Source: Rhodospirillales bacterium (lineage in GTDB: Bacteria > Pseudomonadota > Alphaproteobacteria > CACIAM-22H2). Taken from it: a DNA stretch of 64,000 nt. Below are positions 4,341-29,117 of this stretch, in pieces. The stretch is from positions 24,189-88,188 of the forward strand of contig CANFCX010000001.1 of assembly GCA_947445225.1 (NCBI GenBank), in the 5' to 3' direction. The first letter of the stretch is position 1, and every line of letters starts with the position of its first letter. The notes beneath the pieces are model-generated. The model saw nothing but the letters and a program-made list of their open reading frames with translations. It made no database searches and was not told where the DNA came from. A program made the position numbers and the translations under genes.

Positions 4341-5869
<1,529 letters not shown>

Positions 5870-5870
<1 letters not shown>

Positions 5871-6430: not shown

Positions 6431-6623
6431 AGCAAACTCTCCACAATCTCGGGACCGAAGGCCCCGACCAAGCCCTTGAGAATACAGTAAAATCGGAAGT
6501 GCCGCGAGGACCGCCCGGGAAGCCCTCGCGTGAGGCGCGCGATTGCTAGCATAACCCTGTTGGTGGCGCAACACGGCAAGGCGCCGCAGCCCCCGGTTTT
6601 TCCAGGAACAACGCCGCCGCCTT

Positions 6624-12845: not shown

Positions 12846-15800
12846 CTAATTCCCCTGCGCGCGCTGGCCCGGCGGCGTCGCGGCGCGCGGACCGAGGGTT
12901 GCCGGCGCGGGGATGAAATCGCGGAACAGGATTTCGTCGGTGACGGTCCACGGTTGGCCGGCGGGATTGAGATAGAAGCGCCGCATTTCTTCCAGGTTGA
13001 ACGGGCGCGAGCCGATGCGGCCGAGAACGGCGATTTGACCGCCGGTTTCATCCACGCCGCGGTCGCGGTCCAGCCCCTTGGACAGGGACAGGGCCGGCCA
13101 TGAGGTCGGCGCCCAGGCGATCAGCTCGGGTTTGGGCTCGGGGCTGAAGCCGTAGAAATTCGGCTGTTTGTCGGGCGCGGTTAGGTGGACGACCTTGAGC
13201 CCGTTCACGCCGTCGGCGACATAGGCGTAAGCGGTGGCGTTGGTGGTGCCGACGATCACGTCGTGCGCGTCGTTGATCCGGCCTTCGGCGTTGTACATCA
13301 TGTACATGAAGGGCTTTTCGGGATTTTCGACGTCGACGATCGCCAGCCCCTGTTTTTTCGCGCCGACATAGGCATAGGTGCGGGCGACATAGACGCGCTG
13401 CGGATCGTCCATCGGCACGGACGCACCCTCGACCAGGCGCGGTTTGTCGGGATGGGTTACGTCCACGACCTTGAGCCCGGTGCGGTCGGTCACGAACAGA
13501 TAGCGGAATTGCAGGGCAGAGGCGCGCGCGTCGTCGAGCTTCACAACCGCCTCCAGCTTGGGCTTCAGCGGATTGTCCATGTTGAGCACAACGATGCCGG
13601 CATCGGCGGCGACGTAGAAATAATACCCGGCGATGGTCAGGTGGCGTGCGCCCTTGAGGATGTTGTTTTCGTTCCAGGTGACCGCGCGCGTCAGGAAATT
13701 GTTGCGCGGCTCGCCATCGGCCAGCGTGTTGACGTCGGTCGCGATCAAGCCTTCTTCGGAGTCGGTGATGAAGGCGTAGTTGTAGATCGGGTGGAAGGGC
13801 TGCTCCTGATTGGTCACGCGCATCAGGTCGCCCTTGTTGCGGTCGGGATGGATGGGCTGGCTGGTGGGCAACACGACGCAGGTCGCGTTTTTCGAGGCGA
13901 TATGCGTGTCTTGGCCGAACAGGGAGAACGGCGCGCTGATGATGCGCTGCGACACGCTTTTGTTGGCGATGCTGGCGGTGTCATAGACACGCATCCCGCC
14001 CTTGCCTTCGGCGACAAACAGATATTCGCCGCGCAGTTGGAGGCACGACGCCGGGCCGCCGGCGGAATGGGTGAAGGCTCCGAAAGCCGCCGAGTTGGGC
14101 AGCCGCCGGCCGCGCGCTTCGTGTTCGGCGTAAAAATCGGGGTAGGCGTATTTGTGCAGATAACTGCCGATGACCGCCTGCGGCTCTTCGATTTCGGTCA
14201 CCTGCACGGCTTCGATACCGCCGGCGCCGCCGACCCAGGCGTTGTAGCCGACGAAATTGATGAAGTTGGTCCCTTGCAGCAGAAGCTGGGCCATGATCGC
14301 GTTGTTGTCGTTGGCTTGCGACAAATGGCAATCGGTGCAGGTCTTGGTCTCGGTCTTGCGCTCCGTATGCGGATAATGCGGGGCGAAGGCCTGGCTCGAA
14401 TAACCCGATGCGGCGATCGGCGGCTGCTGGATATAGATGCGGTCGCGGTTGATGTTCTGCGACGAAAGCACCAGCGCCGAGGTCGAGCGAATCGGCGCGA
14501 TGATGCCGTTGCGAACCGGCCCGTGGCGGCCGAGCTGGAAGATTTCGTCGCGGGCGACCTGCGGGTTGTACGTGGCGAAGTTGCGGCTTTCGGTGTCTTC
14601 GTAGTGGTGCCGCGGCGTCTTGCGATTGGCCTGGATCGGCAGATGGCAGCCGCCGCAACTGGTCGACCACGACAAATGGCAGGTGAAACACGCCATCTCG
14701 TCGTCGGGATGGGCGAGGTTTTCCTCCCCGATGCCGGGGCCCCATTTCATCGACAGATCCTTGGACATCAGCTTCGCCCGCGCCGCCTTGGCGTTGTATT
14801 GCGGGCTGCTGGGATCGACGCTGTCCTTGACCAGGCTCATTTCCCATTCCAGGCCCGGCCACACCGACGAACGCTGAAACAGCTTGTTGTCGCGCCATTC
14901 GAACCGGGGACGGCCGTCGCTAAGGCGCTTCAAGGCCAAATCGCGCCCGCCCGGCGGCGCCGCCGGGCCGCTGGTGAGCAGCGTCGGATACGCCCTCGCC
15001 GTGCCGTGGCAATCGGCGCATTGGATTTCGATGGCCGCGGCGACCTCGCCGACGATATGGCCGTTGTTGTGTGCGTCCTGCGAGAAATGGCAATCGACGC
15101 ATTGCATGCCGACGTCGACATGGATCGACGACATGTGGACGGCCTTGCTGAATTTGTCCTTGTCGTCATTGGCGACTTGTTTGCCCGCCGCATCCAGCAG
15201 ATTGCCCTTGCGGTCGCGCTTGAAGATGGCGCGGAAGTTCCAGCCATGGCCGTGATAATCGGCGAATTGCGTGTCCTTGAGCGTCGGGTTGAGTTCCGCC
15301 ACCTTCCTGAGGAATTCGGCGTCGCCCCATTTGCCGCGGATGGCGGCTTCTTCGGGGTTGCGCATCAGGATGGCGTGTTCTTCCTCGGTGGTCGGATATT
15401 TCTGCTTCGCCGGCCACATCGCCTGGGCATCGGATTCATAGTCCCACATCGTGAAGCCGAGCATCGAGTTGAGGAAGATGTTCGGCTGATGCATGTGGCA
15501 GATCATGCATTGGCTGGTCGGGATGGCGTTGGTGAATTCGTGTTTGATCGGGTGCCCGGATTCACCCTTGCGGATGGTGGGATCGGCGGTCTGGGTCGTG
15601 CCGGTGCTGCCGAATTTGGCGTAGGGCCCGGAATGGCGGGGGTCGCGGTCGTTGGCGTAAACGACGTGGCAGGACGAACAGCCGGAATGGCGGAAATCGC
15701 CAGGCTGATCGTTGGTGCCCATCATCCACAAAAAGGGATCGTTCAGGCGTGTCTTGGTGATGTTGATCGCGGGCACGGCGATGCGCAAACCGGTGGCGGG

Positions 15801-16793
15801 CCCGCGGTTGGATTGCCGGATGTCGGGTCGTCCCGGCTCTTCCAGCCGCTGCAAAGCGCCGAGCGAATTGGGCAAGCCGATTTCGGGGAATTGGGTGCCG
15901 ATGTTGCGGCCGCCGCGCTCGAAAATGCGGAAGATGTCCCCCGGGGGGATGACCTCCCAGGCGGGCAGCGGCACCAGCTCGGGCAGGATGCCGCGTTTTT
16001 TCATCGCCTCGGTGGGCGCGACCGGAGCCTTCAGCGAGGCCGGCTGCCCATCGCGGGTATAGCCTTCGCCCAGGATGTAATTCTTGAACGGCAGGATTCC
16101 GTTGTTGTAGGAGGCGCCGCCCCACAACATCGCGCCGGTCGCCATCAGGCTGCGTTCGACCGCCTGAATGGTAAGCATGTGGCAGGCGCCGCAGGCCTCG
16201 CGCGCCACGCGCAGATCGCCGGGGTTGATGAAGCGCACATATTCCGGCGCTTCCTTGATGATCAGGGTGTAGGTCCGTTCCTGATTGGCGCTCGACGGGT
16301 AATGCCAGGTTTCGGGAAAACGCGGCAACACATGGGCGCCGTCCATCGCCGCCCGGTAAGCGGGCTCGTAGACCGGGGCGTGATGTTCTTCGGCATGGGC
16401 GGATTCGGTCGGCTTGATGACGATATGGGCGCCGGGCTTATAGCCGGCGAGCGGGTCCGGTTCATGGCTCGTGTCGGGGGCGTGCGCGGCCGCCTGGTCG
16501 CCGCCGGGCCCATGGCTGCCGGCCGGACGAACCACGGTGGGGTTGCCCCCGTGGCAATCGGCGCAGCCGATATTGAGGGCCGAGTTCTGATGCATGTTGG
16601 GTTGGTCGGTCGCGGTATGGCAGGTCAGACAGCCCGCGCTTTTGGCGTCGGCTTGGGCCTTGGTCTGCCCGGCCGGAGCGGGCGGCGTGAACGCGTATTT
16701 GATGTCACGCGGCTTTTCACCCTCGGCGGCAAAAACCGCGACGGCGACGCCGGAAGCCAACAGGATGCCACAGAATATCCGCCACCCGCGCAT
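12846..16793 (-). CDS. Secreted decahaem c-type cytochrome fused to C-terminal LVIVD-repeat beta-propeller (1315 aa)
   Basis: Signal peptide; ten CxxCH motifs (CLTCH, CADCH, CGACH, CSSCH, CMICH, CVDCH, CADCH, CFTCH, CGGCH, CTDCH) in first ~830 aa; C-terminal repeats LKVVDVTHPDKP / LAIVDVENPEKP / LKVVHLTAPDKQ typical of LVIVD repeats. Confidence 0.85.
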   Translation of the reverse strand: MRGWRIFCGILLASGVAVAVFAAEGEKPRDIKYAFTPPAPAGQTKAQADAKSAGCLTCHTATDQPNMHQNSALNIGCADCHGGNPTVVRPAGSHGPGGDQAAAHAPDTSHEPDPLAGYKPGAHIVIKPTESAHAEEHHAPVYEPAYRAAMDGAHVLPRFPETWHYPSSANQERTYTLIIKEAPEYVRFINPGDLRVAREACGACHMLTIQAVERSLMATGAMLWGGASYNNGILPFKNYILGEGYTRDGQPASLKAPVAPTEAMKKRGILPELVPLPAWEVIPPGDIFRIFERGGRNIGTQFPEIGLPNSLGALQRLEEPGRPDIRQSNRGPATGLRIAVPAINITKTRLNDPFLWMMGTNDQPGDFRHSGCSSCHVVYANDRDPRHSGPYAKFGSTGTTQTADPTIRKGESGHPIKHEFTNAIPTSQCMICHMHQPNIFLNSMLGFTMWDYESDAQAMWPAKQKYPTTEEEHAILMRNPEEAAIRGKWGDAEFLRKVAELNPTLKDTQFADYHGHGWNFRAIFKRDRKGNLLDAAGKQVANDDKDKFSKAVHMSSIHVDVGMQCVDCHFSQDAHNNGHIVGEVAAAIEIQCADCHGTARAYPTLLTSGPAAPPGGRDLALKRLSDGRPRFEWRDNKLFQRSSVWPGLEWEMSLVKDSVDPSSPQYNAKAARAKLMSKDLSMKWGPGIGEENLAHPDDEMACFTCHLSWSTSCGGCHLPIQANRKTPRHHYEDTESRNFATYNPQVARDEIFQLGRHGPVRNGIIAPIRSTSALVLSSQNINRDRIYIQQPPIAASGYSSQAFAPHYPHTERKTETKTCTDCHLSQANDNNAIMAQLLLQGTNFINFVGYNAWVGGAGGIEAVQVTEIEEPQAVIGSYLHKYAYPDFYAEHEARGRRLPNSAAFGAFTHSAGGPASCLQLRGEYLFVAEGKGGMRVYDTASIANKSVSQRIISAPFSLFGQDTHIASKNATCVVLPTSQPIHPDRNKGDLMRVTNQEQPFHPIYNYAFITDSEEGLIATDVNTLADGEPRNNFLTRAVTWNENNILKGARHLTIAGYYFYVAADAGIVVLNMDNPLKPKLEAVVKLDDARASALQFRYLFVTDRTGLKVVDVTHPDKPRLVEGASVPMDDPQRVYVARTYAYVGAKKQGLAIVDVENPEKPFMYMMYNAEGRINDAHDVIVGTTNATAYAYVADGVNGLKVVHLTAPDKQPNFYGFSPEPKPELIAWAPTSWPALSLSKGLDRDRGVDETGGQIAVLGRIGSRPFNLEEMRRFYLNPAGQPWTVTDEILFRDFIPAPATLGPRAATPPGQRAQGN

Positions 16794-16801
16794 CGGCTAC
16801 C

Positions 16802-18688
16802 TCAATAAGTCAGGATCAGATTGGCCAGGACGGAATAAAAGAGGTCCTGGCTGCGGCTGGTTTCGTACAGATCGCGCAGCCCGTCGCTCGGCACCAAGAC
16901 CGCGCCGGACAGCCGGAACACGATGTTCTGCATGAACAGAGGCCGGTAGATCGCGGCGACCGAAAGGTCATAACCGATGTCGTGATGGATGTCGGCCTGG
17001 TTGCGGAGGAATTCGAGCGAGGAGGTATCCATGAATTCCAGCTTGTTGAAATTCGTGGACAGCCGCAGTTCCGGGGTCACGTCCATGTCGGTGCCGAAGC
17101 CGAGCAGCCGGATGCCGGGATTGTTGAAATTGGATTGCCCGATTTCCTTCGACGGGCGCAGCGACGGCAACACGCCGTTGCGGGGCGAAAGGGCGACACC
17201 GCCGCCGCCGATGAAGGGGATCGACTGGCGTATCCAATAGCTGGTGTCGGCGCCGGCGAATTGCGGGTTCTCGAAGATGGCGTCGAAACCCTCTTCCCGG
17301 TTGTCGAAGGGGTCCTTGTCGCCGCTGGCGACCAAAGCGGAGGCGCGCACGCGGATCCAGTCGAAATCGATGGAAGGCTCGATCGCGGCGAAATAGGCGC
17401 GAATGTCCGACTTATCGATTCCGCTGAACTGGTTATGATCGTCGGTGCCAAAGGCGTAATAGGCCGAGCCGGTCAGGTTGAGCCGGCCGAAATGCCCGTC
17501 GCCGTTGAGGCCGAGATAGTGGACATCGTATTTGCGCGGCCGCTGGTCGCCGATCGTGGCCGGGCGCTGCAGGAAGAAGTTCTTGTCGTAGTAGAAATCC
17601 TCGCTCTCGTCGTTGACGTTGTACATATACGTCGCCTGCGAGGTGAAGCCGACCACCGGGAAATCCTGCGCATAGACATTGGCAATATAGATATCGTCCT
17701 TGCGCAGCGGCTGGCCGATGTCGTTGAGGCCGCTATTGGTGTCCTTTTCCAGCCGGCGGAACCAGGCCAGATTGTATTGATAGAGGTTGTTCGAGCGGTT
17801 GCCGAACAGTCGCGCGCCCAACTGAATGTCCTGGAACACGAAGCCGCGGAAATCCGAGGAAAACGGCTGGATGCCGATGCGGATCGAATCGAAATCGTAA
17901 CGGTCCGACACGTTGCGTAGGTGATAGTCGATGAAGCCTTCCTGGAAGGCGATCATGTTGTCGGAGCGCACGGTGCCCTGGTTGGGGTCGGCGAACAGCA
18001 CGCCGCGTTCCTCGACCTCCGCGCGGTTGTATTGAATGACCGGCGTGATGCGGAATTCGTAATCGGGCGGGCGGTAGGCGGTGTCGCCCTTGATCAGCGA
18101 GGCGCTCAAGATCACGGTCTCGACGAACACGTTTTGGTTGGTGTCGCCGAACAGATCGACGGAGTTGGCGCGCCGCGTGGTCGAAATGCCCACCGGAATC
18201 GGCGTGCGCCGCGGCTCGTAGACCGTGTCCGAAATCGCGCTGAGGTTGATGAACCAATCGTCCCACAGCGGGCGGTCGCCTTTGAGCGTGTTCTGGTTGT
18301 ACGGGTCCCACCAGCGTTCGTTGACGCCGATCGCCTCGATCAGGCGCCAGCGATCCGGGATCGGGATGAATTCGCGCGGCAACACCGGCGACGGCGGCGG
18401 CACGGCACCGGGATCGGTGATCGGAGCCACGCGCGGCGGCGCGGGCGGCGGCGCGCCGGGCCGCCGCTGATCCTGGGCGACGATGGGCGCGACGGCGCCG
18501 GGTTGGGGAATTCCGAAATTGCCAGGGCTTCTCCCCGCCGGGGCGAGGAGAGGCGATTCCTCCTTGCCGGCCCAGGCCGGAACGGGAAGGCTCACCGCCG
18601 CCAGGGCCAAAATAAGGGGCAGCGAAGCCAATCCCGAAAGTCCGACCGTCTTTGTCCGCCGGCGCATCCTAGATGACCCCGCACACAT
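16802..18688 (-). CDS. Outer-membrane beta-barrel protein (porin-like, ~620 aa)
   Basis: Signal peptide MRRRTKTVGLSGLASLPLILALAAVSLPVPAWA (ATG at 18667 probably the true start); alternating amphipathic strands; C-terminal ...LANLILTY aromatic terminus typical of OMPs. Confidence 0.7.
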   Translation of the reverse strand: MCAGSSRMRRRTKTVGLSGLASLPLILALAAVSLPVPAWAGKEESPLLAPAGRSPGNFGIPQPGAVAPIVAQDQRRPGAPPPAPPRVAPITDPGAVPPPSPVLPREFIPIPDRWRLIEAIGVNERWWDPYNQNTLKGDRPLWDDWFINLSAISDTVYEPRRTPIPVGISTTRRANSVDLFGDTNQNVFVETVILSASLIKGDTAYRPPDYEFRITPVIQYNRAEVEERGVLFADPNQGTVRSDNMIAFQEGFIDYHLRNVSDRYDFDSIRIGIQPFSSDFRGFVFQDIQLGARLFGNRSNNLYQYNLAWFRRLEKDTNSGLNDIGQPLRKDDIYIANVYAQDFPVVGFTSQATYMYNVNDESEDFYYDKNFFLQRPATIGDQRPRKYDVHYLGLNGDGHFGRLNLTGSAYYAFGTDDHNQFSGIDKSDIRAYFAAIEPSIDFDWIRVRASALVASGDKDPFDNREEGFDAIFENPQFAGADTSYWIRQSIPFIGGGGVALSPRNGVLPSLRPSKEIGQSNFNNPGIRLLGFGTDMDVTPELRLSTNFNKLEFMDTSSLEFLRNQADIHHDIGYDLSVAAIYRPLFMQNIVFRLSGAVLVPSDGLRDLYETSRSQDLFYSVLANLILTY

Positions 18689-20558
18689 TCTGCGCCTTGG
18701 TAATGCCCAGGAAGGGGGTGAACGGGCAACTGACGTAACGCAGCCGAGTGCCGCGCGGGGACAGGTTGTCCGACCGCACGGCCGGGCGCGCGTTGCTCAA
18801 TCCGTTGCCCTTGCCGCCATGATAGAGGCCAAGCGCGGCGATCATGTCGTCCTGGTCGATGCCATCGCCCGAAACGCCGACGCCGCCGACCAACACGCCG
18901 TTGCGGTAGATCGGCACGCCGCCGGCGAATATCTGGATGCCGTTGGCCAGCCGGTTGGACCCGCCGGCCGCGGCGACCGCTGCCAGCCCGGTGCAGCCAG
19001 CGGCGTTGGTGGCGTTGCCGGGGTTGGTCAGGTGATTGGCGATGTCGGTGGAGACGAGGTCGAGCTGCAGCCCGGTGCTGAACGGGCTCCATTGCTGAAA
19101 GGGACGGCTCAACGGCCCCACCGACTGGCCATCGACGCCATCGGGGAAATAGGGGCGCGCGATGTTGCCGATGGCGCGAGCGCTATACGCGATGCCGTCG
19201 GCGAAAGCGGTCGGCCCGATCAAGGACCGTGCCTGGGCAATGTAATCGACGGCCAGCGCCAGCGCGGTGATTTCCGCGCCCGCGGTCGTCCGCGAGAAAA
19301 ACACGGCGGTTCGGCCTTTTTGCAGTGACACGTCGGTGCCGAAGACGGGCGCATCGGGGGTACGCACCAAACCCAGGACCAGGCCATTGGTGTCGACCAC
19401 ACTGATGGTGACCTGGGCGTAGCTGCCCAGCGGGCGCCGGATTTGCGCACGCGCCAGAAGCGCCACATCGAGGGCATGGCGCAGGATGGAGTTGACCTCG
19501 GCGGCGGTCAGCACATTGGCCGCGCCACCCACCACGGTGGCGGCGTCGCCACCGGCGGTCGGCGGAAAACGGTTGGCGCCGGCCGCGTTTTCCAACACGA
19601 AGGCGCGGCCGTTGTTGAAGACGCCGCCCGGATCGGGGATGTAGCCCGAACCCGCCGCGCCGAAAACCTGACCGGCGATGACGGCGGCGTTGGCATAACC
19701 GGCGACCGCGACCAGCGCCCCACCGGCGGGCGGGAAAGCCGGGGCCGAGCTGGGGTTGCTGCGGAAATCGGCCGGCGTGGCGTCCGAATAGCGGAGCGTG
19801 CGACCACCGGCGGTGATGCGGTTGGCGCGAATGTCGATGGGCGCGTCGAAGCCGTTGGTCCCGGCCAGCGCGATGACCTCGTCGGGATCGACGTCGCGAT
19901 TGATGATGTCGAGATCCAGGCTGTAGACACCATCGGAGATGGCGCCGACGCCGCCGACGACCCGGCCGTTCTTGTACAAGGGGAAGCCGCCGGTATCGGC
20001 GGACAACCCGGCAGGCGAACGTTTGGGGCCGCGCGTGGCCACGCCGGGGAATTGCAGGTTCAGGTCCGAACACGGCAATTGGCTGAATTGAACGCCGAAC
20101 AGCGGGCCGCCGGGCTGTTGTTTTTCGCCGACGTTGAAATGTTCCTGGACGATCTGGCTGGCCACCCGGGTGGAAAACGCGTTGCCGGCGGACGACAGAT
20201 AAGCGCCGGTGACCGCCTTGGCGATGGCCAAGAGGGTATCGGTATTGGCGATGGCGGCGCCTTCGAGGCCGGTGGCGACACCGCGCCCGGAACTGACCGT
20301 GATCGTCGTTGCGGCGCCGGTCATGCGGAAGACGCCGAGCACGTTGCCGACGCGATCGACGACGGCGATGGTGGCCAACCGGCCGCGCGCCGTGGCCTCC
20401 GTCACCGCCTGCGAAATCACCACGCCGACATCGGCGACCGTGAGGTTCTGCGCGCGCGCCGGAGCGGCGGACAGGGCGGTAAGACCGGCTAGACCCAGCA
20501 GGACCGCGAGAACCCGCCGCGCGACATAGTTCCCGGTCATGGCGGTCCTCGCGGTCAT
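18669..20558 (-). CDS. Secreted protein with two tandem GlcG/HbpS-like (DUF336, haem-binding/degrading-type) domains
   Basis: Signal peptide; motifs RLATIAVVDRVGNVLGVFRMTGA and QVTISVVDTNGLVLGLVRTPDAPVFGTDVSLQKGRTAVFFS, plus GGVGVSGDGIDQDDMIAALG typical of GlcG family. Confidence 0.7.
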   Translation of the reverse strand: MTARTAMTGNYVARRVLAVLLGLAGLTALSAAPARAQNLTVADVGVVISQAVTEATARGRLATIAVVDRVGNVLGVFRMTGAATTITVSSGRGVATGLEGAAIANTDTLLAIAKAVTGAYLSSAGNAFSTRVASQIVQEHFNVGEKQQPGGPLFGVQFSQLPCSDLNLQFPGVATRGPKRSPAGLSADTGGFPLYKNGRVVGGVGAISDGVYSLDLDIINRDVDPDEVIALAGTNGFDAPIDIRANRITAGGRTLRYSDATPADFRSNPSSAPAFPPAGGALVAVAGYANAAVIAGQVFGAAGSGYIPDPGGVFNNGRAFVLENAAGANRFPPTAGGDAATVVGGAANVLTAAEVNSILRHALDVALLARAQIRRPLGSYAQVTISVVDTNGLVLGLVRTPDAPVFGTDVSLQKGRTAVFFSRTTAGAEITALALAVDYIAQARSLIGPTAFADGIAYSARAIGNIARPYFPDGVDGQSVGPLSRPFQQWSPFSTGLQLDLVSTDIANHLTNPGNATNAAGCTGLAAVAAAGGSNRLANGIQIFAGGVPIYRNGVLVGGVGVSGDGIDQDDMIAALGLYHGGKGNGLSNARPAVRSDNLSPRGTRLRYVSCPFTPFLGITKAQNVCGVI

Positions 20559-21025
20559 TGCGCGATACCCACCCGGAACACGCCGAATTTGAAGCTGTCG
20601 GCCGTGCGATAGGCAACGATCACGTTAAAAGGGAATTCCTGGCCGGTGAGGTCTTCCTTCAACACCTTGAAGACGAGCCGGTTGCCGACGGGCTGGATGC
20701 GATTGTCGATCAGATGGTCGGTGTCGCCGTCCCAGCGCACCCAATAGCCGAGATTGCTGCGCTGCAGCAGCAAATTTCCCCAGGGTTTGGCGATGACATA
20801 GGTGGCGAGCGGCTGATCGCCGTGCAGATCGATTTCGCGGATGATCTCGGCGGCCTCCGGGCGAATGGCGATCGGCGCCAGCATCGCACCTTCAACGCTC
20901 AACGCCTCGCCCCGGCCGGACGCCGGGGCCAGCAACGCCAACGCCATGAAAAAAAAGGTAAATCCAAATCTGGACGGACCGGCTTTCGGTCGTGTTCCAC
21001 TTGGATCGTGCGCCAACAGCGCCAT
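20555..21025 (-). CDS. Small secreted hypothetical protein (~156 aa)
   Basis: In-frame ATG (MALLAHDPSG...) downstream of cytochrome stop; hydrophobic FGFTFFFMALALLAPASG signal-like segment; 4-nt overlap with next gene. Confidence 0.5.
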   Translation of the reverse strand: MALLAHDPSGTRPKAGPSRFGFTFFFMALALLAPASGRGEALSVEGAMLAPIAIRPEAAEIIREIDLHGDQPLATYVIAKPWGNLLLQRSNLGYWVRWDGDTDHLIDNRIQPVGNRLVFKVLKEDLTGQEFPFNVIVAYRTADSFKFGVFRVGIAQ

Positions 21026-21072
21026 CCGGTCATCCCCCATTTTTTTTGCCCGGCCAACAAAGCCGCGCCACT

Positions 21073-22779
21073 TTAACGCGGCGCGCCCGTTTGGCCAACC
21101 CCCGGCGCGCCGCCGACGGCTTGCGGACGCATCGGACCCATGGCCGGCGTGTGGAAGACGTGGCAGGCCACGCAGGTCGACGGCACCAACGTAGTCACTT
21201 CTTCCCCGCCATGGCAGCGGCGGCAATTGGCGATCCCCGGGAGCAGGACCTCGGAACTGGCAACGGATTTCGGCGCGGCGTGGCAATCGACGCAATCGGT
21301 GTTTTTGTGTTTGCTGTGATCGAATTTGCCCTTGGGCATCCAGGTCGCCGCCACGAACACCGGCTTGACCCGGAAATTGGGTCTCTCGTCGAGCCGGGTC
21401 GTCCGTTCGACGAGGTGGCAACTCCCGCAGATGCTCTTGCCGTAGACGATCTCGATGGTCGCATCGGCGCGGCTGCGCGCCCAGGCCAGCGCTTCGGTGC
21501 GCGCCGCTTCCTCGATCGGCGTGCCGGCACGGCGACGCACGGCGGCCGGCGCCGTGGGATCCTCGAAACCGCCTTCGAGTGCGACGCGGCCGTAGAAATC
21601 GTTGAGGACCTTGGCGACTTCGTCGGGTTTGCCATGCGGCACTTCGCGGTCGAGCGCCTGGGCCTCGAACTTCAATTTGTGGCAATCGCGGCAATCGGTC
21701 TCCATGTCAACCGCACGCATGCCCACGCCGCCGGTCTCCGGGCGGTGGCAATCATTGCAGACCATTTTCTGCAAGCCGGTGGGGCCACGCACGCCGGCTG
21801 GCACCAAATGTTTGTCATGCGGGAAGATTAGGTTGGAATTTTCCTTCAGCGCCGGATCACCGATCGCCAACCGCGCCAGGGTCCGCGTTGCCGGGTCGGT
21901 CACCACCGACGGCCGAAATTCGGGGTGATCGCGGCCGAAATCGCTGACGTTGATCAGCTTGGTCGTGGGGATGATCGCGGTCAGCCGCACATGGCAATCG
22001 TCGCACAAGGCTTGCGCCGTCTGGATCGCCGGCTGCCGGCCTTGATGTTCCTTGTGGCAAGACGCGCAGCGAGTCTCTTCCAGTGCCGGCAGTTGCACCG
22101 TCTTCACATCGGCGTGGTGGGCGATGTCGCTGTGGCAGGTAAGGCAGGCCTGGTCCTGGACCATGATGAAGGGCCGCTCGTGGCAGGTCGTGCAATCACT
22201 CGCGAAATATTTGTGCACGCCGGAGATTTCGCCGGATTCCCATGACTTGTCCGCCGCGATCGGCATCGCCGTCATGCTTTTGTGAAGGTCGGGTATGAAA
22301 AAGGCAGCGACCGGAAGGACCAGGAAAAGCAGGAGCACGGTGGCGAACGCGGTCCACGACAATACGCGTTTGCTGAACGCGGCATCACCCAGGCGGGCAT
22401 GGCTGCGCTGCGTTAGTTCGGCGAGATCGTCTCCCAGCGGCTGCACCAATTCGACGGTAACCGCGACGCCATAGCCAGGCGGCGCTTCCACCACATCGAT
22501 CTTGTAGGGACCGACGGCGATCGAATCGCCGGGCCGGACACGACCTGAATTGGCGGCGGCGCCATTGATGGAAAGATCGTTGCTGCCAACCGCGGAGGCG
22601 TAGACCTGGCCCTCGCGCACATGTATTTCGGCGTGGTCGAGCGCGACCCGCGGATCAGGAAGATAGACTTCGTTCTTGGTGCCGCGGCCGATGCGGATGA
22701 ATTCCACGGTGGCGTCTTGGTCGCGCCGGGAGACGCCACGATTGCCGCGCCGAGTCAAATAGCCGACTTGGACAAGCAC
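21073..22779 (-). CDS. FHA domain - transmembrane helix - periplasmic decahaem c-type cytochrome fusion (568 aa)
   Basis: N-terminal FHA (IRIGRGTKNEVYLPDPRVALDHAEIHVREGQVYASAVGSNDLSINGAAANSGRVRPGDSIAVGPYKI), TM VLSWTAFATVLLLFLVLPVAAFFIP, then ten CxxCH motifs (CTTCH, CLTCH, CASCH, CDDCH, CNDCH, CRDCH, CGSCH, CVDCH, CRRCH, CVACH); GTG start with GGGAG SD. Confidence 0.85.
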   Translation of the reverse strand: MLVQVGYLTRRGNRGVSRRDQDATVEFIRIGRGTKNEVYLPDPRVALDHAEIHVREGQVYASAVGSNDLSINGAAANSGRVRPGDSIAVGPYKIDVVEAPPGYGVAVTVELVQPLGDDLAELTQRSHARLGDAAFSKRVLSWTAFATVLLLFLVLPVAAFFIPDLHKSMTAMPIAADKSWESGEISGVHKYFASDCTTCHERPFIMVQDQACLTCHSDIAHHADVKTVQLPALEETRCASCHKEHQGRQPAIQTAQALCDDCHVRLTAIIPTTKLINVSDFGRDHPEFRPSVVTDPATRTLARLAIGDPALKENSNLIFPHDKHLVPAGVRGPTGLQKMVCNDCHRPETGGVGMRAVDMETDCRDCHKLKFEAQALDREVPHGKPDEVAKVLNDFYGRVALEGGFEDPTAPAAVRRRAGTPIEEAARTEALAWARSRADATIEIVYGKSICGSCHLVERTTRLDERPNFRVKPVFVAATWMPKGKFDHSKHKNTDCVDCHAAPKSVASSEVLLPGIANCRRCHGGEEVTTLVPSTCVACHVFHTPAMGPMRPQAVGGAPGVGQTGAPR

Positions 22780-22803
22780 GGTATTACTCCCGCTCCGAAA
22801 TCG

Positions 22804-23661
22804 TTACCAGTAGAAGAAAACGGAGAAAACGTGGGTCGTCAGCGCCGCCAAAAGGCCGACCGACAACGGCACGTGGAACATCAGCCAAATTTCCAGGAAA
22901 GCCCGGTATTGCACGTCGCGCCGCGCGCGACCGACAAGGTCGCTCTTGCGGCTCAACAAGGTCAGCAATTTACGCACGGCGACGGCGTCTTCCACCGAGA
23001 CCTTGGTCGCGAGTTGTTTGATCCTGGCCAGCGCGCGCGAAGTCGGGCAATTGGGATCGCGGCCGGAAAGCTGACGCCACACCGACCCGCCGATCTGAGT
23101 ATTGCGTCCGGAATCGAGCACCGCCCGCGTGATCTCGTCGGGCAGTCCCATGGAAACTTCGCGGCTTTCGGTATCGAGCGCGGCGATGCGCGTGAAAATC
23201 TCGGTCAGTGTCAGCCCGCCGCGGTTCTGGGTCATCAAGGCGGGATACCGTTGATAGAAAAACACGCCGAACACGCCCGACAGGATGACCAGCATCATCA
23301 AGGTGTAGGCAAGCGTATGCACGTTCCAGCCGAACTGGAACCCGGTGTGCAGCGTGGCCACGACGATCAGCGCGAGGCCGAGATAGACATGCGCCGATAG
23401 CCAGCCCTGAAGTTTCGTCGGACCCTGGTTGTACCGCCGTTTACGTACGCCGAACCACATCAGCCACAGGATCAAGCCCGCGCCGATCGTGCCCAACACA
23501 TAACCGAGCCACGTGCCGCCATTGGGCGGGTCCAACGGGCTGTGGGCGCCGTAGACGATCGCAGCCGCCAGCGCGCCCAGGACGGCGACCTTCAAATACC
23601 GGAAGTTGCGGTAGACGAGATAGGATTGATGCATCGTCTTTTGGCTGTTGGCCGACCTCAA
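22804..23661 (-). CDS. Polytopic membrane protein with conserved intramembrane histidines (candidate b-type haem/quinol-interacting subunit)
   Basis: 285 aa, five predicted TM helices each with His (SAHVYLG, TLHTGF, NVHTLAY, MFHVPLS, TTHVFSV); TTG start overlapping upstream stop (TTGA). Confidence 0.55.
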   Translation of the reverse strand: MRSANSQKTMHQSYLVYRNFRYLKVAVLGALAAAIVYGAHSPLDPPNGGTWLGYVLGTIGAGLILWLMWFGVRKRRYNQGPTKLQGWLSAHVYLGLALIVVATLHTGFQFGWNVHTLAYTLMMLVILSGVFGVFFYQRYPALMTQNRGGLTLTEIFTRIAALDTESREVSMGLPDEITRAVLDSGRNTQIGGSVWRQLSGRDPNCPTSRALARIKQLATKVSVEDAVAVRKLLTLLSRKSDLVGRARRDVQYRAFLEIWLMFHVPLSVGLLAALTTHVFSVFFYW

Positions 23662-26057
23662 AGACCCCGGTTAGACAGCGAGAAGAATTCCTCGGGGCTG
23701 ACACGAATGGCGGCGCCGGTCGGACAGGCCCGCACGCAGGACGGGCCGCCTTCGATGCCTTTGCACATGTCGCATTTCACCGCCATCTTGCGTTTGTTCG
23801 GGTCTTTTTTCTTGCCGTGGGTGGCTTCCCAATCCTCGCCCGGCCCGTGGCCCAGCCCGAACAACATCCAGGCCAGCAAGCCCGGCTTGGCCGGCGGCTC
23901 CGCCGACATGTGAATGACGTGATAAGGACAATTGCGCTCGCAATTGCCGCAACCGATGCATTTTTCGTCGATGAACACTTCACCATTGGGCGAACGGTGG
24001 ATGGCGTCGGCCGGGCAATCGGACATGCAATGCGGGTGTTCGCAATGCCGGCACGAGGTTGGCACATGGATCGAGGCATAGGTCGGGCCGGCTTCGCGAT
24101 CCAGCCGCGACACCCCGTGATGGGTCTCGGCGCAGGCCTTTTCGCAATTGTCGCACCGCACGCACAGCGATTCGTCGATCAACAGAACGTCGGTCGCCTC
24201 GCCCAAACCTTGGTCGAGCAGGAACTGCATCAGATTCGAATGGTCGGGCCGGCCTTCCATGCGGGCGTTTTCGACGAGCCGTGCCTGGAACCGAGATTCG
24301 ACCTCGACGCGCAACTCGGGCGAGCGATCGAGCAGGCCGCGGAAGGCGCCGCCATCGAGTTTGATGGCCTCCGTCGCCACCGCCGCCCGCACCGTGGCGG
24401 TGCGCGGGCTCTTGGTCAGCAGCGCCATTTCGCCGACATAATGGCCGGCGGGGACATAGGACAAAACCACGTCGCGGCCGCCCAGGTTGCGCGCCACGGT
24501 CACCGACCCGCTGCGGATCAAATAGACGTTGTCGCCGATATCGCCTTCCTTGATCAGCACGTCGCCGGCGCTGAAGGACTGGATCGTGGCCGTGCGCACG
24601 ACATCGACCAGGTCGCGCTTGGAGACCTGCGGCGCTAGATGCGTCTGCACCTGGCGGATCATGGCGGTTTCGTCGAGCACACGTTTAGCCGCGGCGATCG
24701 AACGGGTCAGCTTGATAACCTGCCGGCGCGGGGTCTCGATCAACACGCAATCGGCGCCCGCCACCACCGTCGCCGTGCGCCGGCGGCCGGAGATCAAACC
24801 CATCTCGCCGAAGAATTCGCCGGTCTTCAGCGTCACCTTGATCGCTGGGTTTTCGGCGCTGACCTGGACATCGACCGACCCCGACAGGATCGAATAGAAG
24901 CTGTCGGAATAATCGTTGCGCTTGAAAACGATCTCGCCCTGTTTGGGCACATGGACGTCGCTGTCGAGCAGGAATTCGCGAAGCTGCAGCTTGGTCAACG
25001 AGGAGAACATCGGCACGCGCTGCTGCACGCCCTCCAGGAACTGCGAGACGGTCACCCCTTGCAGCCCCGTGAGTTTTGCCTCGAGCAGCGGCTCGTCCGC
25101 CGGCTTCACCTCATGCCCGAGGATATATTCGACCACCTCGTAGCCCTGGTTCATGCAGTGTTTGATCAGGGGATAACCGGCGAGCGCGCCGATGATGTAC
25201 AGCCCCTTCACGTTCGATTCGTAGCTGTCGCTGACCCCCGGAACCGAGGCCGGATCGGCGTTGGGGAACACGATGCCGCAGGCCTCGACGAATTTGCGCG
25301 GCGGCAGGGCGCCGATACGGGCGATGACCCGGTGGCACTTGACCACCGCCTCGCCCTCCGGCGTTTTCAGGAAAATGGCGCTGGGATCGGTCTCGACCTT
25401 AATGACCTTGGTATTGAAATAACACTGGATGCGGCCTTCCTTGATGGCCGATTCGATCAGCGCGACGTTGCCCGCCTTGGCGCGCGCGAAATCACCCATG
25501 ACGTTGACGACGATGACCTCGTTTTGGGCGGCCAGCGCGATGGCGTTTTCGAGCCCGGCATCACCGGCGCCGATCACAACGATGGTTTCGTCTTTGTATT
25601 CTTCCGGGTCGTCGAGTTGGTACTGGACGTTGGGGCCGGTTTCGCCGGGTACGCCGAGGGTGCGGATATTGCCCTGCAACCCAATGGCGAGCACGACGGC
25701 ATCGGCGGTGAGCGTTTGTTTGTTGGCGAGCGTGATCGTGAAGATCGCGCCTTCCTTCTTGATGCCCGCGACATCGGCGTTTTGGCGCAGGTTGAATTTC
25801 AACTCGCCGGCGCTTTTGTCCCAGGAACCGAGGATGGTTTCGCGGGCGCCTTCCTTGAATTGAAGATCGCTGCGCAGGGGCAGGACCTCCGGCGTCGCCA
25901 TGACGTGTTTTTTCTTCTGATACTTGTAGATCGTATCGGAAAGATGGGTGGTGCGTTCGAGCAGCACATAAGACGCGCCACGCTTGGCCGCGCGTCCCGC
26001 CGCGCTTAATCCGGCCGGGCCCGATCCGACAATCGCGATCGCATAGTGTTCGGCCAT
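23658..26057 (-). CDS. FAD/NAD(P)-binding oxidoreductase fused to two cNMP-binding domains and a C-terminal 4x[4Fe-4S] ferredoxin domain (799 aa)
   Basis: GSGPAG and GAGDAG dinucleotide folds; two CRP-type cNMP signatures (FGEMGLISGRRRTATVVA; VGEMALLTKSPRTATVRA); four Cys clusters CVRCDNCEKAC, CRHCEHPHCMSDCP, CIGCGNCERNCP, CDMCKG..CVRACP. Confidence 0.85.
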   Translation of the reverse strand: MAEHYAIAIVGSGPAGLSAAGRAAKRGASYVLLERTTHLSDTIYKYQKKKHVMATPEVLPLRSDLQFKEGARETILGSWDKSAGELKFNLRQNADVAGIKKEGAIFTITLANKQTLTADAVVLAIGLQGNIRTLGVPGETGPNVQYQLDDPEEYKDETIVVIGAGDAGLENAIALAAQNEVIVVNVMGDFARAKAGNVALIESAIKEGRIQCYFNTKVIKVETDPSAIFLKTPEGEAVVKCHRVIARIGALPPRKFVEACGIVFPNADPASVPGVSDSYESNVKGLYIIGALAGYPLIKHCMNQGYEVVEYILGHEVKPADEPLLEAKLTGLQGVTVSQFLEGVQQRVPMFSSLTKLQLREFLLDSDVHVPKQGEIVFKRNDYSDSFYSILSGSVDVQVSAENPAIKVTLKTGEFFGEMGLISGRRRTATVVAGADCVLIETPRRQVIKLTRSIAAAKRVLDETAMIRQVQTHLAPQVSKRDLVDVVRTATIQSFSAGDVLIKEGDIGDNVYLIRSGSVTVARNLGGRDVVLSYVPAGHYVGEMALLTKSPRTATVRAAVATEAIKLDGGAFRGLLDRSPELRVEVESRFQARLVENARMEGRPDHSNLMQFLLDQGLGEATDVLLIDESLCVRCDNCEKACAETHHGVSRLDREAGPTYASIHVPTSCRHCEHPHCMSDCPADAIHRSPNGEVFIDEKCIGCGNCERNCPYHVIHMSAEPPAKPGLLAWMLFGLGHGPGEDWEATHGKKKDPNKRKMAVKCDMCKGIEGGPSCVRACPTGAAIRVSPEEFFSLSNRGL

Positions 26058-27933: not shown

Positions 27934-29117
27934 TGGCTGATCGGTTCAAGACCCGTCTTTTGGTCACGAGTTTTCTGACCGGCGTCGCCGTTGCCGGGAT
28001 CCTGACCGGCGCACCCGATCGGGCCGAAGCGCAAACCGTGCTGTCGATCGGCTCCCTGGACGGATTGAATACCTTCCTCTCCGGCATGGACGCGGCCTTG
28101 CGCGCGGCGCGCGTGGCGGGCGATTCGGCGAGCGCGGCCGGCACCGGCGATCTGACCGTCTGGCACAATCCTAGCGAGGCCCGTAGCTGGTCGGACTCCG
28201 CCGCCGCCGCGGACGACCCGTGGACAAAGGCCAATCTGAAAGTCGTCGATCTGTTCACCCAAATGGGTGGGGAACGTATGGACCGCGCCCTTGTGTTCCG
28301 GCGCGGCGCGGACGGCTTCTCCGCCGCCATCGACGGCATGGGCGCGGCCTGGTTCGCCGCGGCCGAGGCCGCTCAGGTCGGGTTGCTCCGCCAATTGGTC
28401 AAGGACAGCGCCGCGGTGCCCACCGCGCTTAAGGACGCGGTCGCCGACGCCGATGCCGAGACCTTGGGTGATGTCGTCGCCGCGGTGGCGCAAGCCGCGC
28501 GCAGCGGCGTGATCTTCCTGACCCGCGGGGGCACGGCCACCGTCACCATTCGCGACCCCCAAATCAGCGTCGCCGGTGGCGCGCCCTTTGTGTTGTCGCC
28601 CAGCGGCATCGTTGTCGGCGACATCGCGGTTTCCGGCGCCACCCAATTGTCGGTGGCGCTGACCGCGCCCGGCGACATCGCCGACGGCCAGCACCTTCTC
28701 TATGTCTACAATCCCGGCCGCGCCTTGCTGGCGGCCGCCGAATTCCAGATTTCGATCGCCAACGGGGCGACCGTCGCCGCCCTGCCGGTTTCGGCGACGG
28801 CTCCAGCTTCGGGTGTCGCCCTTCTCCCCGCCAATGGCAGCATCGATGGCCGCGTCGCCTCGGGACAGGAAGCGGTCTACCGCTTCGACCTGCTCGCCCC
28901 CGCCGCCGTCGCCATCCATTCGACCGGCCCAACCGATGTTTTTGGCCGGCTCGAAAACGCCAATGGGACGGTGCTCGCCGAAAACGACGATGGCGGCAGT
29001 TGGTACAATTTCAGGCTGGCCCGTAACCTCGCCGCCGGCACCTATTACCTGCGGGTGCGCCATTGCTGCTCCGGCAATGGCAGCTTCACCCTGAACACGG
29101 CGACGGCGGCGCAGTAG
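27933..29117 (+). CDS. Secreted protein with C-terminal pre-peptidase (PPC)-like beta-sandwich domain
   Basis: TAATG overlap with upstream gene; signal peptide; C-terminal GQEAVYRFDL..GPTDVFGRLENANGTVLAENDDGGSWYNFRL..AGTYYLRVRH matches PPC-type domain. Confidence 0.55.
   Translation: MADRFKTRLLVTSFLTGVAVAGILTGAPDRAEAQTVLSIGSLDGLNTFLSGMDAALRAARVAGDSASAAGTGDLTVWHNPSEARSWSDSAAAADDPWTKANLKVVDLFTQMGGERMDRALVFRRGADGFSAAIDGMGAAWFAAAEAAQVGLLRQLVKDSAAVPTALKDAVADADAETLGDVVAAVAQAARSGVIFLTRGGTATVTIRDPQISVAGGAPFVLSPSGIVVGDIAVSGATQLSVALTAPGDIADGQHLLYVYNPGRALLAAAEFQISIANGATVAALPVSATAPASGVALLPANGSIDGRVASGQEAVYRFDLLAPAAVAIHSTGPTDVFGRLENANGTVLAENDDGGSWYNFRLARNLAAGTYYLRVRHCCSGNGSFTLNTATAAQ

Follow-up and report, generated by a model that had tools for sequence, protein, structure and literature searches.

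Genes of the locus

The window, by which we mean the whole stretch of DNA analysed here, comprises 64,000 nucleotides from a Rhodospirillales bacterium (contig CANFCX010000001.1 of assembly GCA_947445225.1). The gene of interest encodes a membrane protein with five predicted transmembrane (TM) helices. As the preliminary description of this DNA had stated, and as we confirm, it lies between the genes for a flavo-FeS protein and an FHA-domain cytochrome, and a module of further genes follows on the same strand as this trio.

23658..26057, minus strand: flavo-FeS partner, 799 aa, cytoplasmic, upstream (domain searches)
22804..23634, minus strand: putative di-haem cytochrome b gene, five-TM, 276 aa (homologue length and start, GC3, database record)
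21073..22779, minus strand: FHA-decahaem cytochrome partner, 568 aa, downstream (domain and motif searches)
12846..21013, minus strand: outer module, whole
~20555-21013, minus strand: small secreted protein of the outer module
18669-20558, minus strand: signal-peptide protein of the outer module with three HbpS-like domains
16802-18688, minus strand: putative outer-membrane barrel of the outer module
12846-16793, minus strand: 1315-aa secreted protein of the outer module with 10 CXXCH motifs and a match to the LVIVD repeat

The five-TM open reading frame is a genuine gene. Homologue searches recovered at least 7949 relatives of its product, at least 2012 clusters at 50% identity score E<1e-3 against the family, and an identical protein is already present in NCBI/ENA, where the entry for the 285-aa form reads "hypothetical protein [Rhodospirillaceae bacterium]". 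The mechanically defined frame runs from 22804 to 23661 on the minus strand and yields 285 aa from a TTG. Nearly all homologues are 274 to 278 aa long and share the N-terminus MH(E/Q)S, so the probable true start is the ATG at 23634, giving 276 aa; the coordinates of the frame in the preliminary description are confirmed. An antisense frame at 22621-23400 on the plus strand failed a codon-position GC filter, and we set it aside as an artefact of a GC-rich genome; the minus-strand gene has a GC3 of 0.81.

The flavo-FeS protein is made up of a TrxR/YpdA-type (FNR-like) flavoprotein, a pair of cNMP-binding domains and a HycB-like polyferredoxin part in which there are four Cys motifs. It carries FAD and NAD(P) Rossmann motifs, with no CxxC and no signal peptide, and its FeS domain (residues 600-799) matches HycB (7z0s_B) at E=1e-18 across nearly the whole domain. 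The cytochrome is anchored by one TM helix, with a cytoplasmic FHA domain at its N-terminus and 10 CXXCH motifs in its periplasmic domain; the five-TM protein itself contains no CXXCH motif.

The FHA-decahaem gene, separated from the five-TM gene in the window by a spacer of 24 nt, lies directly downstream of it in 77 of 78 loci and is also adjacent in the 78th. Upstream, the flavo-FeS gene adjoins the five-TM gene in 48 of 68 loci. Nineteen of the other 20 have no ferredoxin-like ORF within 10 kb, which suggests that NAD(P)H may not be the only or the universal electron source; in locus L026, ccm genes stand upstream in place of the flavo-FeS gene. Casimicrobiaceae, Usitatibacter and Burkholderiales are among the carriers of loci without it. 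A co-evolution test looked for positions at which the five-TM proteins of loci with the flavo-FeS gene next to them differ from those of the other loci, and found none. The order of the trio persists in the most divergent relative (L086, 33% identity), and a Magnetococcus protein (P0163, a single MAG sequence) is a fusion of the flavo-FeS protein to the five-TM protein. An apparent fusion to the C-terminus of the cytochrome (P0242) is probably an assembly or deletion artefact and was left out. As for the outer module, 45 of the 53 loci with enough downstream sequence carry the HbpS-like gene as well as the barrel gene, and in some marine loci a porin/pentahaem/tetrahaem set replaces them.

The trio is widespread in Proteobacteria. 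Hosts of the five-TM family include marine SAR116-type and oxygen-minimum-zone Alphaproteobacteria, Magnetococcus, iron-oxidising Gallionellaceae, and many soil and groundwater Beta- and Gammaproteobacteria, and the trio is widespread among aerobes of these three classes with no known electroactivity. Cultured carriers are Oceanibacterium hippocampi CECT 7691 (L002), Zavarzinia sp. CC-PAN008 (L022) and Desertibaculum subflavum (P0062), among others.

Two preprints describe what appears to be the same set of genes. PtdE-PtdF-PtdG of the "ptd" cluster match the trio in composition and domain descriptions, the five-TM protein being called "ferric reductase-like" (bioRxiv 10.1101/2023.11.21.568154), and the "NHC" cluster of Ferrigenium straubiae has the same trio descriptions with an FHA-nonahaem cytochrome (bioRxiv 10.64898/2026.01.22.701106). 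Both call the function "completely unknown", and one of the two says that the five-TM protein has no redox motif (10.1101/2023.11.21.568154; 10.64898/2026.01.22.701106). As in those clusters, the gene studied here is flanked by a gene for a cNMP-binding, 4Fe-4S protein and by one for a cytochrome with nine or ten haems, and two loci found via the five-TM protein (L013 and L028) carry the penta-, tetra- and decahaem layout. Matched by architecture and gene order, the present protein and the PtdF/Ferrigenium protein almost certainly belong to one family.

Topology and conserved residues of the five-TM protein

Topology prediction bore out the preliminary claim of five TM helices, with five hydrophobic segments in an N-in/C-out arrangement; their approximate limits, and the insert that separates the last two, are listed below.

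23533..23589, minus strand: TM1, residues 16-34, poorly conserved, H31 not conserved
23443..23508, minus strand: TM2, residues 43-64, no His, G48 invariant and G62 nearly so
23332..23412, minus strand: TM3, residues 75-101, motif W78-x3-H82-x13-H96
23251..23322, minus strand: TM4, residues 105-128, H106 at the periplasmic end, G120 and G123
22903..23250, minus strand: cytoplasmic all-helical insert, residues 129-244, between TM4 and TM5
22810..22902, minus strand: TM5, residues 245-275, motif W250-x3-H254-x13-H268, in register with TM3

The orientation follows from the count of K+R per loop, which is 2/0/5/0/20/0, and a cluster of R64-K65-R66 marks the cytoplasmic end of TM2. With the N-terminus inside and the C-terminus outside, TM3 and TM5 are parallel and their His pairs lie at matching depths. 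The AF2 model is all-helical (pLDDT 94.6), and the 116-residue insert is modelled, at pLDDT 95-98, as a bundle of helices that runs on from TM4 and into TM5. Mean column conservation is 0.74-0.81 for TM2 to TM5, compared to 0.47 for TM1 and 0.52 for the insert; TM1 is probably a peripheral helix. Within the insert, P131 at the TM4 boundary aside, every residue is at most 76% conserved. The insert may serve as a docking platform.

Conservation was counted over 125 cluster representatives that are 32-58% identical, and a smaller alignment of 53 sequences (A2) was used alongside. H82 and H96 on TM3 are kept in all 125 representatives, and H254 and H268 on TM5 in 120, the exceptions being mostly gaps or truncated sequences. 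These four residues account for half of the 8 columns that are invariant among the 276 of A2. H106 on TM4 is kept in 122 of 125, and directly before it lies a strongly conserved loop, GFQFGWN. The preliminary description had called the protein His-rich and had assigned a histidine to each TM helix, and neither statement survives: histidine makes up 7 of 276 residues (2.5%), TM2 has none, the one on TM1 is unconserved (H31, kept in only 38/125), and TM3, TM4 and TM5 carry two, one and two, respectively. Codons of the candidate axial ligands are at 23389-23391 (H82), 23347-23349 (H96), 22873-22875 (H254) and 22831-22833 (H268); that of H106 is at 23317-23319.

The two His pairs have the same layout. 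Each is spaced by 14 residues, with its first His 4 residues past a conserved Trp, and hhalign, comparing TM3 with TM5, matches the Trp and the two His of one helix to those of the other (P=0.0013). Read from sequence, the paired W-x3-H-x13-H on TM3 and TM5 is the classic bis-His pattern, predictive of two stacked haems b. The glycines complete the picture: G120 is kept in 125/125 and G123 in 123/125 representatives, and the set formed by these two on TM4 with G48 and G62 on TM2 (spacing 14) is invariant or kept in at least 94%. In cytochrome b, glycines of the flanking helices contact the haems, and those seen here would do so by analogy. The protein thus shares with di-haem cytochromes b in general two conserved His pairs, 13-14 apart, on two helices of a four-helix core, and small residues on the flanking helices.

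Searches of Pfam, NCBIfam and PDB sequences gave no match for the five-TM protein at a curated or significant threshold. Below threshold, PF01292 (Ni_hydr_CYTB/prokaryotic cytochrome b561) is matched weakly by 35 of 53 members. The window protein scores 18.5-18.9 bits against it, or 20.3 bits without the insert, and the best family member scores 28.4 bits, all short of the gathering threshold of 30.1. Once the insert is removed, PF01292 becomes the top Pfam match in 10 of 10 members, colinear over positions 14-165 of 179, and E reaches values as low as 1.6e-6. DUF4405 is matched weakly by 9 of 53 members and Ferric_reduct (PF01794) by 6 (best E 0.0014); the window protein reaches 13.2-13.3 bits over positions 1-84 of 121 in the latter profile, below its gathering threshold of 28.

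PDB searches, with the single sequence and with the 53-sequence profile, returned only chance coiled-coil matches to the insert. Fold searches were dominated by generic helical bundles, with nothing from Foldseek at E<0.3. An HMM of the insert-deleted family scored E. coli CybB, YodB, YceJ, HyaC, FdnI and MsrQ no better than negative controls, and hhalign of the family profile against the single E. coli sequences of MsrQ and CybB gave no match; A2 against an MsrQ alignment gave a probability of 0.6%, a weak test, as the latter alignment is thin (Neff 1.45, homologues at least 77-82% identical). An NrfD/NapH/PsrC-type anchor was considered and rejected, as these families are absent from the Pfam/NCBIfam scans at E≤1 and do not figure among the 25 Pfam families that the 53 members hit most frequently at E≤0.1. 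The earlier report of no match to NapH, NrfD or CbcL therefore holds for the first two. For CbcL it needs softening, since the only recurrent Pfam signal is PF01292, which presumably also holds the b-type domain of CbcL.

A candidate two-haem relay and its alternatives

We think it rather probable that the five-TM protein is an inner-membrane di-haem cytochrome b, hitherto unclassified, that connects the flavo-FeS protein to the decahaem cytochrome. A candidate bis-His b-haem subunit, linking the ferredoxin side to the periplasmic haems, had been suggested in the preliminary description. The His pairs, the glycines and the topology all argue for it, as do the weak matches to di-haem cytochromes b, the conserved gene order and the one natural fusion. 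The computed topology and the domains of the partners place the FeS protein on the cytoplasmic side of the membrane and the c-haems on the periplasmic side. The conserved core would be a four-helix bundle of TM2 to TM5, in which the inner haem b, close to the cytoplasmic face, would have H82 and H254 as its ligands and the outer haem b, close to the periplasmic face, H96 and H268, with the invariant glycines of TM2 and TM4 leaving room for the porphyrins to pack. The flavo-FeS protein would oxidise NAD(P)H and pass electrons through up to four [4Fe-4S] clusters to the inner haem b; the outer haem b would hand them on to the FHA-anchored cytochrome with its ten c-haems, which would feed a module of the periplasm and outer membrane that is exchangeable. 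Such a relay would operate in the manner of a multi-subunit NOX or Fre-MsrQ system, or of the Tmc/Hmc complexes, as a line of electron export across the membrane that does not depend on quinones and is probably gated by cyclic nucleotides and phospho-threonine signalling. That electrons would flow outward is argued from thermodynamics.

A quinone-reactive cytochrome b of the FdnI/HyaC/CybB/CbcL kind, exchanging electrons between quinol or quinone and the decahaem cytochrome, with the flavo-FeS protein in an accessory or regulatory role, is a reading that we regard as unlikely; it is compatible with the two-haem relay and does not exclude it. To our knowledge, the characterised members of PF01292, the one recurrent Pfam signal, are all quinone-reactive. 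The 20 of 68 loci with a non-adjacent flavo-FeS gene, the ccm genes of L026, and the absence of group-specific differences in the five-TM proteins of such loci point in the same direction. The GFQFGWN-x-H106 stretch is among the best conserved of the protein and could line a quinol site beside the outer haem, but this periplasmic loop could equally dock the c-type cytochrome, and no quinone-site motif was found in the five-TM protein. The flavo-FeS gene, moreover, is adjacent in 48 of 68 loci, the most divergent relative among them, and is fused in one genome. Much more improbable, in our judgement, is a chain that runs inward, from Fe(II) or a cathode through the c-haems and b-haems to the FeS flavoprotein, reducing NAD(P)+ or another cytoplasmic acceptor. 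Its cofactors are all reversible in principle, Fe(II)-oxidising Gallionellaceae harbour the FHA-multihaem gene together with its neighbours (PMC10734462), and the Ferrigenium preprint proposes an uptake role for the FHA-nonahaem cytochrome (10.64898/2026.01.22.701106). However, on bioenergetic grounds, transfer uphill to NAD(P)+ against the membrane potential would need energy that no component supplies, and most hosts are ordinary aerobes of the Alpha-, Beta- and Gammaproteobacteria and not known iron oxidisers.

The four invariant, membrane-buried His in two in-register H-x13-H motifs, and the invariant glycines on the helices next to them, would go unexplained if the protein were a non-redox scaffold joining the FHA-cytochrome and the FeS protein, a role suggested in the Ferrigenium preprint (10.64898/2026.01.22.701106), or a relay of periplasmic redox signals to the FHA and cNMP domains. 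We give that reading very little weight, even though the five-TM protein matches no database motif at threshold and, according to the same preprint, has no InterPro match (10.64898/2026.01.22.701106), the flanking proteins bear regulatory domains (FHA, two cNMP), and the large cytoplasmic helical insert has no known function; the insert, which would be the scaffolding part, is among the least conserved regions. A transporter, or a metal- or haem-handling protein whose His bind Fe, Cu, Zn or transported haem, is the least probable reading of all. Histidines can act as metal ligands, and the HbpS-like triple-domain neighbour downstream is of a "haem-degrading" type, but a His pattern at two levels on two helices fits stacked bis-His haems and not a translocation path, and the invariable partners are electron carriers. 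No transporter family was matched in the Pfam/NCBIfam scans of the protein or in the Pfam scan of the 53 members. A transporter fold with unconserved histidines, which the preliminary description had named as the outcome that would tell against its proposal, was not found.

The two-haem relay leads to a broader and more tentative proposal, which we consider quite possible: the trio may be a self-contained, quinone-independent NAD(P)H:multihaem-cytochrome oxidoreductase, an export engine of bacteria that resembles NOX. It would draw on the cytoplasmic pyridine-nucleotide pool and feed interchangeable periplasmic and outer-membrane conduits. It would be regulated, with the two cNMP domains as a cyclic-nucleotide switch and the FHA domain of the cytochrome as a phospho-threonine switch. 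The Gram-negative electron-export routes known to us (CymA, ImcH, CbcL, CbcBA) start at the quinone pool. If the proposal is true, a cytochrome b wired to NAD(P)H would be a different entry point for electron export that bypasses quinones, in a relay that would dissipate, rather than build, the membrane potential and would come with regulatory domains of its own. With four candidate haem ligands named, and its topology and set of partners described, a "hypothetical protein" becomes a testable hypothesis.

Comparison with known systems

The ptd and NHC trios almost certainly represent the same family. Their preprints mention neither the conserved His pairs nor the topology nor the insert, and the His pairs would correct the published claim of a membrane subunit without redox features. 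The outer module described here also differs, with a triple HbpS-like protein alongside a barrel and a decahaem/LVIVD protein.

The proteins of PF01292 (CybB, HyaC, FdnI) are likewise small helical membrane proteins with two stacked bis-His haems b, which are here predicted, and have H-x13-H on the last helix. The ligands of FdnI are H18 on helix 1, H57 on helix 2, and H155 and H169 on helix 4. In an alignment that is statistically insignificant, H254 and H268 fall on H155 and H169, so that only the last helix, with its two His, corresponds to the PF01292 pattern, which has a single His on each of helices 1 and 2 and a pair on helix 4; the other two ligands here are both on TM3 rather than one each on TM1 and TM2. 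The present protein further differs in having an extra N-terminal helix and a 116-residue cytoplasmic insert that splits the domain, and no quinone site is evident in it. Formate dehydrogenase-N resembles the trio in having a four-cluster ferredoxin-type partner (FdnH, compared to the HycB-like domain here), but the FeS partner is periplasmic there and cytoplasmic here.

With PF01794 (NOX, FRE, STEAP, Fre-MsrQ), whose members lend relatives in UniRef the name "ferric reductase-like", the protein shares the placement of two His pairs, spaced by 13-14 residues, on the third and the fifth helix. The proposed path, from a cytoplasmic NAD(P)H flavoprotein donor to an acceptor outside the membrane, is also similar, which we would read as a likeness of function and not of descent. 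Here, however, an FeS wire stands between flavin and haem, and the acceptor is a decahaem c-type cytochrome rather than O2, Fe(III) or MsrP.

In Geobacter CbcL, a di-haem b domain in the inner membrane and a nine-haem c domain form one fused protein, and its electrons come from menaquinol. CbcL likewise couples a b-type di-haem module directly to periplasmic multihaem c, at the start of an outward path, as proposed here. In the trio, by contrast, b and c are divided between two polypeptides, of which the c-type one brings an anchor of its own and an FHA domain, and an NAD(P)H-linked FeS flavoprotein is attached.

The TmcABCD, HmcABCDEF and DsrMKJOP complexes share with the trio a three-layer plan of cytoplasmic FeS protein, membrane cytochrome b and periplasmic multihaem c. 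These complexes of sulfate reducers use a NarI/HdrE-type cytochrome b and an HdrD-type FeS protein. Their protein families are unrelated to those of the trio and their physiology is different; unlike them, the system described here includes a flavin/NAD(P)H module, cNMP and FHA domains, and an outer-membrane module.

The membrane protein and its gene

The membrane protein that separates the flavo-FeS and FHA-cytochrome genes is encoded by the following open reading frame.

22804-23661, minus strand, five-TM protein, 285 aa from a TTG codon

Nearly all homologues are 274 to 278 aa long and begin with MH(E/Q)S, so the true start is most likely the ATG at 23634, 24 nt past the stop codon of the upstream gene, giving a product of 276 aa; residues are numbered throughout according to this form. 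The reading frame is a genuine gene, with a GC3 of 0.81 and at least 7949 homologues (E ≤ 0.001), and the family comprises 2012 clusters at 50% identity with E < 1e-3 and 247 with E < 1e-30. An identical protein is present in NCBI/ENA, where the 285-aa form is MSO88749.1, “hypothetical protein [Rhodospirillaceae bacterium].” Elsewhere in the window, an ATP synthase alpha/beta-family reading frame of 701 aa (4341-6446, minus strand) has recognized domains from residue 217, and either its mechanically assigned start is too far upstream or it carries an unusual N-terminal extension.

Hydropathy yields five membrane segments, as the preliminary description proposed, at about residues 16-34, 43-64, 75-101, 105-128, and 245-275. 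The successive loops contain 2, 0, 5, 0, 20, and 0 Lys plus Arg residues, so the topology is unambiguously N-in/C-out, and the 116-residue loop between TM4 and TM5 is on the cytoplasmic side. The protein had also been called His-rich, with a histidine on every helix; it is only 2.5% His, TM2 has none, and H31 of TM1 is found in just 38 of 125 representatives.

Conserved histidines and fold

Conservation was assessed in those 125 full-length cluster representatives, which are 32 to 58% identical to the query. H82 and H96 are present in all of them, H106 is present in 122, and H254 and H268 are each present in 120, the exceptions being mostly gaps or truncated sequences. A second alignment of 53 sequences (mean column identity, 37%) has only eight invariant columns: H82, H96, H254, H268, G48, R66, G120, and G123. 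Mean column conservation is 0.74 to 0.81 for TM2 to TM5, far above that of TM1 (0.47) and the cytoplasmic insert (0.52), which points to a four-helix bundle of TM2 to TM5 as the functional core.

The TM3 motif, W78-L-S-A-H82-V-Y-L-G-...-T-L-H96, and the TM5 motif, W250-L-M-F-H254-V-P-L-S-...-T-T-H268, share the pattern W-x3-H-x13-H. Both helices run from inside to outside, and so H82 and H254 share one depth near the cytoplasm, with H96 and H268 about 21 Å further out. The flanking helices have invariant or almost invariant glycines at G48 and G62 (again with a spacing of 14) and at G120 and G123, a pattern resembling that of the haem-contacting glycines of mitochondrial-type cytochrome b. Judged by sequence, the core has the textbook ligand pattern of a transmembrane stack of two haems b with bis-His ligation. 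The earlier reading of the protein as a bis-His haem b link is upheld, although the basis stated for it was imprecise. When the TM2-TM3 and TM4-TM5 hairpins were compared with hhalign, the Trp and both His residues fell in register with a P-value of 0.0013 and a probability of 19%, values that suggest an internal duplication without proving it.

The window protein scores below the Pfam cutoffs for PF01292 (prokaryotic cytochrome b561, hydrogenase cytochrome b; 18.5 bits, cutoff 30.1) and PF01794 (Ferric_reduct; 13.2 bits, cutoff 28), and an NCBIfam scan returned nothing meaningful. Its Pfam and NCBIfam matches include none of the NrfD or NapH type. When 53 diverse members were scanned singly, 35 gave a match to PF01292 (best E = 6e-6), 9 to DUF4405, and 6 to Ferric_reduct. 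Because these partial matches end where the insert starts, residues 135-241 were deleted from ten members and the scan was repeated. PF01292 was then the top family in all ten (E from 1.6e-6 to 0.03); in seven the match ran colinearly along roughly positions 14-165 of the 179-position profile, in three it covered only positions ~99-165, and the best score, 28.4 bits, was still below threshold. The protein cannot be assigned to any curated family.

None of the individual E. coli di-haem proteins scored above negative controls with the family HMM; in its statistically insignificant alignment to FdnI, H254 and H268 pair with the known ligands H155 and H169. PDB sequence searches gave no match. 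A first AF2 model had poor confidence in the TM region, and a second, made with 53 diverse sequences, is all-helical (pLDDT 94.6, pTM 0.87), with TM4 and TM5 extending into a cytoplasmic helical bundle. Foldseek found no match to this protein in the PDB with E < 0.3. The modeled fold is compatible with a di-haem cytochrome b but does not discriminate in its favor.

Partner proteins and genomic context

Genes of the cluster in the window

23658-26057, minus strand, flavo-FeS protein, 799 aa
21073-22779, minus strand, FHA-decahaem cytochrome, 568 aa
20555-21013, minus strand, small secreted protein of about 150 aa with a hydrophobic N-terminus
18669-20558, minus strand, 629-aa protein with a signal peptide and three domains of HbpS-like type (“haem-degrading,” PF03928)
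16802-18688, minus strand, 628-aa putative outer-membrane barrel with only a weak Alginate_exp match
12846-16793, minus strand, secreted 1315-aa protein whose first 820 residues contain 10 CXXCH motifs

The flavo-FeS protein has no signal peptide. One part is a TrxR/YpdA-type two-Rossmann flavoprotein module lacking the redox CxxC; among proteins of solved structure, it is closest to Bdr/YpdA, thioredoxin reductases, and ferredoxin-NADP+ reductases of the TrxR type. This module is combined with two cNMP-binding domains and, at the C-terminus, a domain of four Cys motifs that aligns along almost its whole length with HycB of formate hydrogenlyase (E = 1e-18). HycB is an electron wire of four [4Fe-4S] clusters. 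In the downstream cytochrome, a cytoplasmic FHA domain is accompanied by a single TM helix and ten CXXCH motifs. The small reading frame between the FHA-cytochrome and HbpS-like genes has no Pfam match. The 1315-aa protein, whose gene ends the strand-consistent cluster and follows that of the barrel, has an LVIVD repeat match in its C-terminal part (residues 1132-1168; Pfam LVIVD, E = 1e-17) and is a candidate for a surface-exposed terminal reductase. Just upstream of the cluster are genes for a PPC-domain protein (27912-29117, plus strand) and a GspD-type secretin (29157-31295, minus strand), which may belong to a type II secretion system able to export surface components.

We compared 80 loci from species-representative genomes of Alpha-, Beta-, and Gammaproteobacteria. 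The FHA-decahaem gene is directly downstream in 77 of the 78 loci of sufficient extent and likewise adjacent in the 78th; the flavo-FeS gene is directly upstream in 48 of 68. All three genes are retained in the most divergent relative examined (33% identity). In Magnetococcus sp. YQC-9 (L087 8001-11333, MEO5345780.1), the flavo-cNMP-FeS and five-TM proteins form a single 1110-aa polypeptide, followed by an FHA-octahaem cytochrome (8 CXXCH), with no outer-membrane module nearby; since this is one MAG sequence only, the fusion may be an assembly artifact. A database protein of 355 aa (P0242) probably represents a deletion or an assembly chimera; in it, the part from TM3 to the insert is joined to the C-terminal haem region of the FHA-cytochrome. 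At locus L026 (2731-9849), the directly upstream place of the flavo-FeS gene is taken by cytochrome c maturation (ccm) genes on the opposite strand.

HbpS-like and barrel genes follow downstream in 45 of 53 loci, where the barrel is the best conserved cluster protein (52 to 74% identity). Two marine Rhodospirillaceae-type MAGs (L013 12735-17697 and L028 12719-17951) instead have a putative porin of 538 to 563 aa and 5-CXXCH and 4-CXXCH proteins, encoded convergently with the trio in agreement with the published “ptd” layout, and one locus of 32% GC (L057) has a tetrahaem protein as its only outer module. The outer module is exchanged between loci around an unchanging inner-membrane trio. The stop codon of the FHA-cytochrome gene is overlapped by a GC-rich hairpin with a T-rich tail (21062-21085, minus strand), which could separate trio and outer module transcriptionally; terminator-like sites in the region show no excess (18, versus 14.4 ± 3.8 in shuffled sequence).

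The ptd cluster, described from Alphaproteobacteria of oxygen-minimum zones, encodes a cNMP and 4Fe-4S protein (PtdE), a TM protein termed “ferric reductase-like” (PtdF), and a decahaem protein (PtdG); according to the authors, the function “remains completely unknown” (10.1101/2023.11.21.568154). A Ferrigenium straubiae cluster encodes a nonahaem cytochrome with an FHA domain, a protein with five TM helices, and a [4Fe-4S] protein (10.64898/2026.01.22.701106). Both preprints cover the gene set of the trio without resolving its role. In a Gallionellaceae pangenome, 27 genomes are listed as having a “Forkhead-associated protein” with 10 haems, on which no comment is made (PMC10734462). We found no experimental work on this gene set in the literature.

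Proposed electron path

Within a conserved redox unit of three proteins, the five-TM protein forms the link across the membrane, and the topologies of the three are consistent with one electron line. Electrons would pass in the cytoplasm from NAD(P)H through FAD to the [4Fe-4S] chain, then to the haem b on H82/H254 and the haem b on H96/H268, and from there to the ten periplasmic c-haems and the exchangeable outer module. We infer that flow is outward, because inward transfer to NAD(P)+ would be uphill and against the membrane potential, with no energy-coupling element. Two features are unusual and yet constant, the insert and the FHA domain, and together they may form a docking and regulatory platform.

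The main alternative is a quinone-coupled role. The upstream flavoprotein is absent at 20 loci, mostly of Burkholderiales, Casimicrobiaceae, Usitatibacter, and Lysobacter; 19 of these have no ferredoxin-like reading frame within 10 kb, and the twentieth (L059) has the flavo-FeS gene downstream of the cytochrome. These loci keep a quinol site under consideration, and the highly conserved periplasmic loop GFQFGWN-x-H106 could be either part of such a site or a docking surface for the first c-haem. No positions were found that distinguish the membrane proteins of flavoprotein-less loci. We regard the binding of two haems b as highly likely and the complete path from NAD(P)H to the periplasm as reasonably probable. 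The protein is best regarded as a new variant, so far unclassified, among the di-haem transmembrane cytochromes b, differing from the others in that both ligand pairs are on TM3 and TM5 and in having an additional N-terminal helix and the 116-residue cytoplasmic insert.
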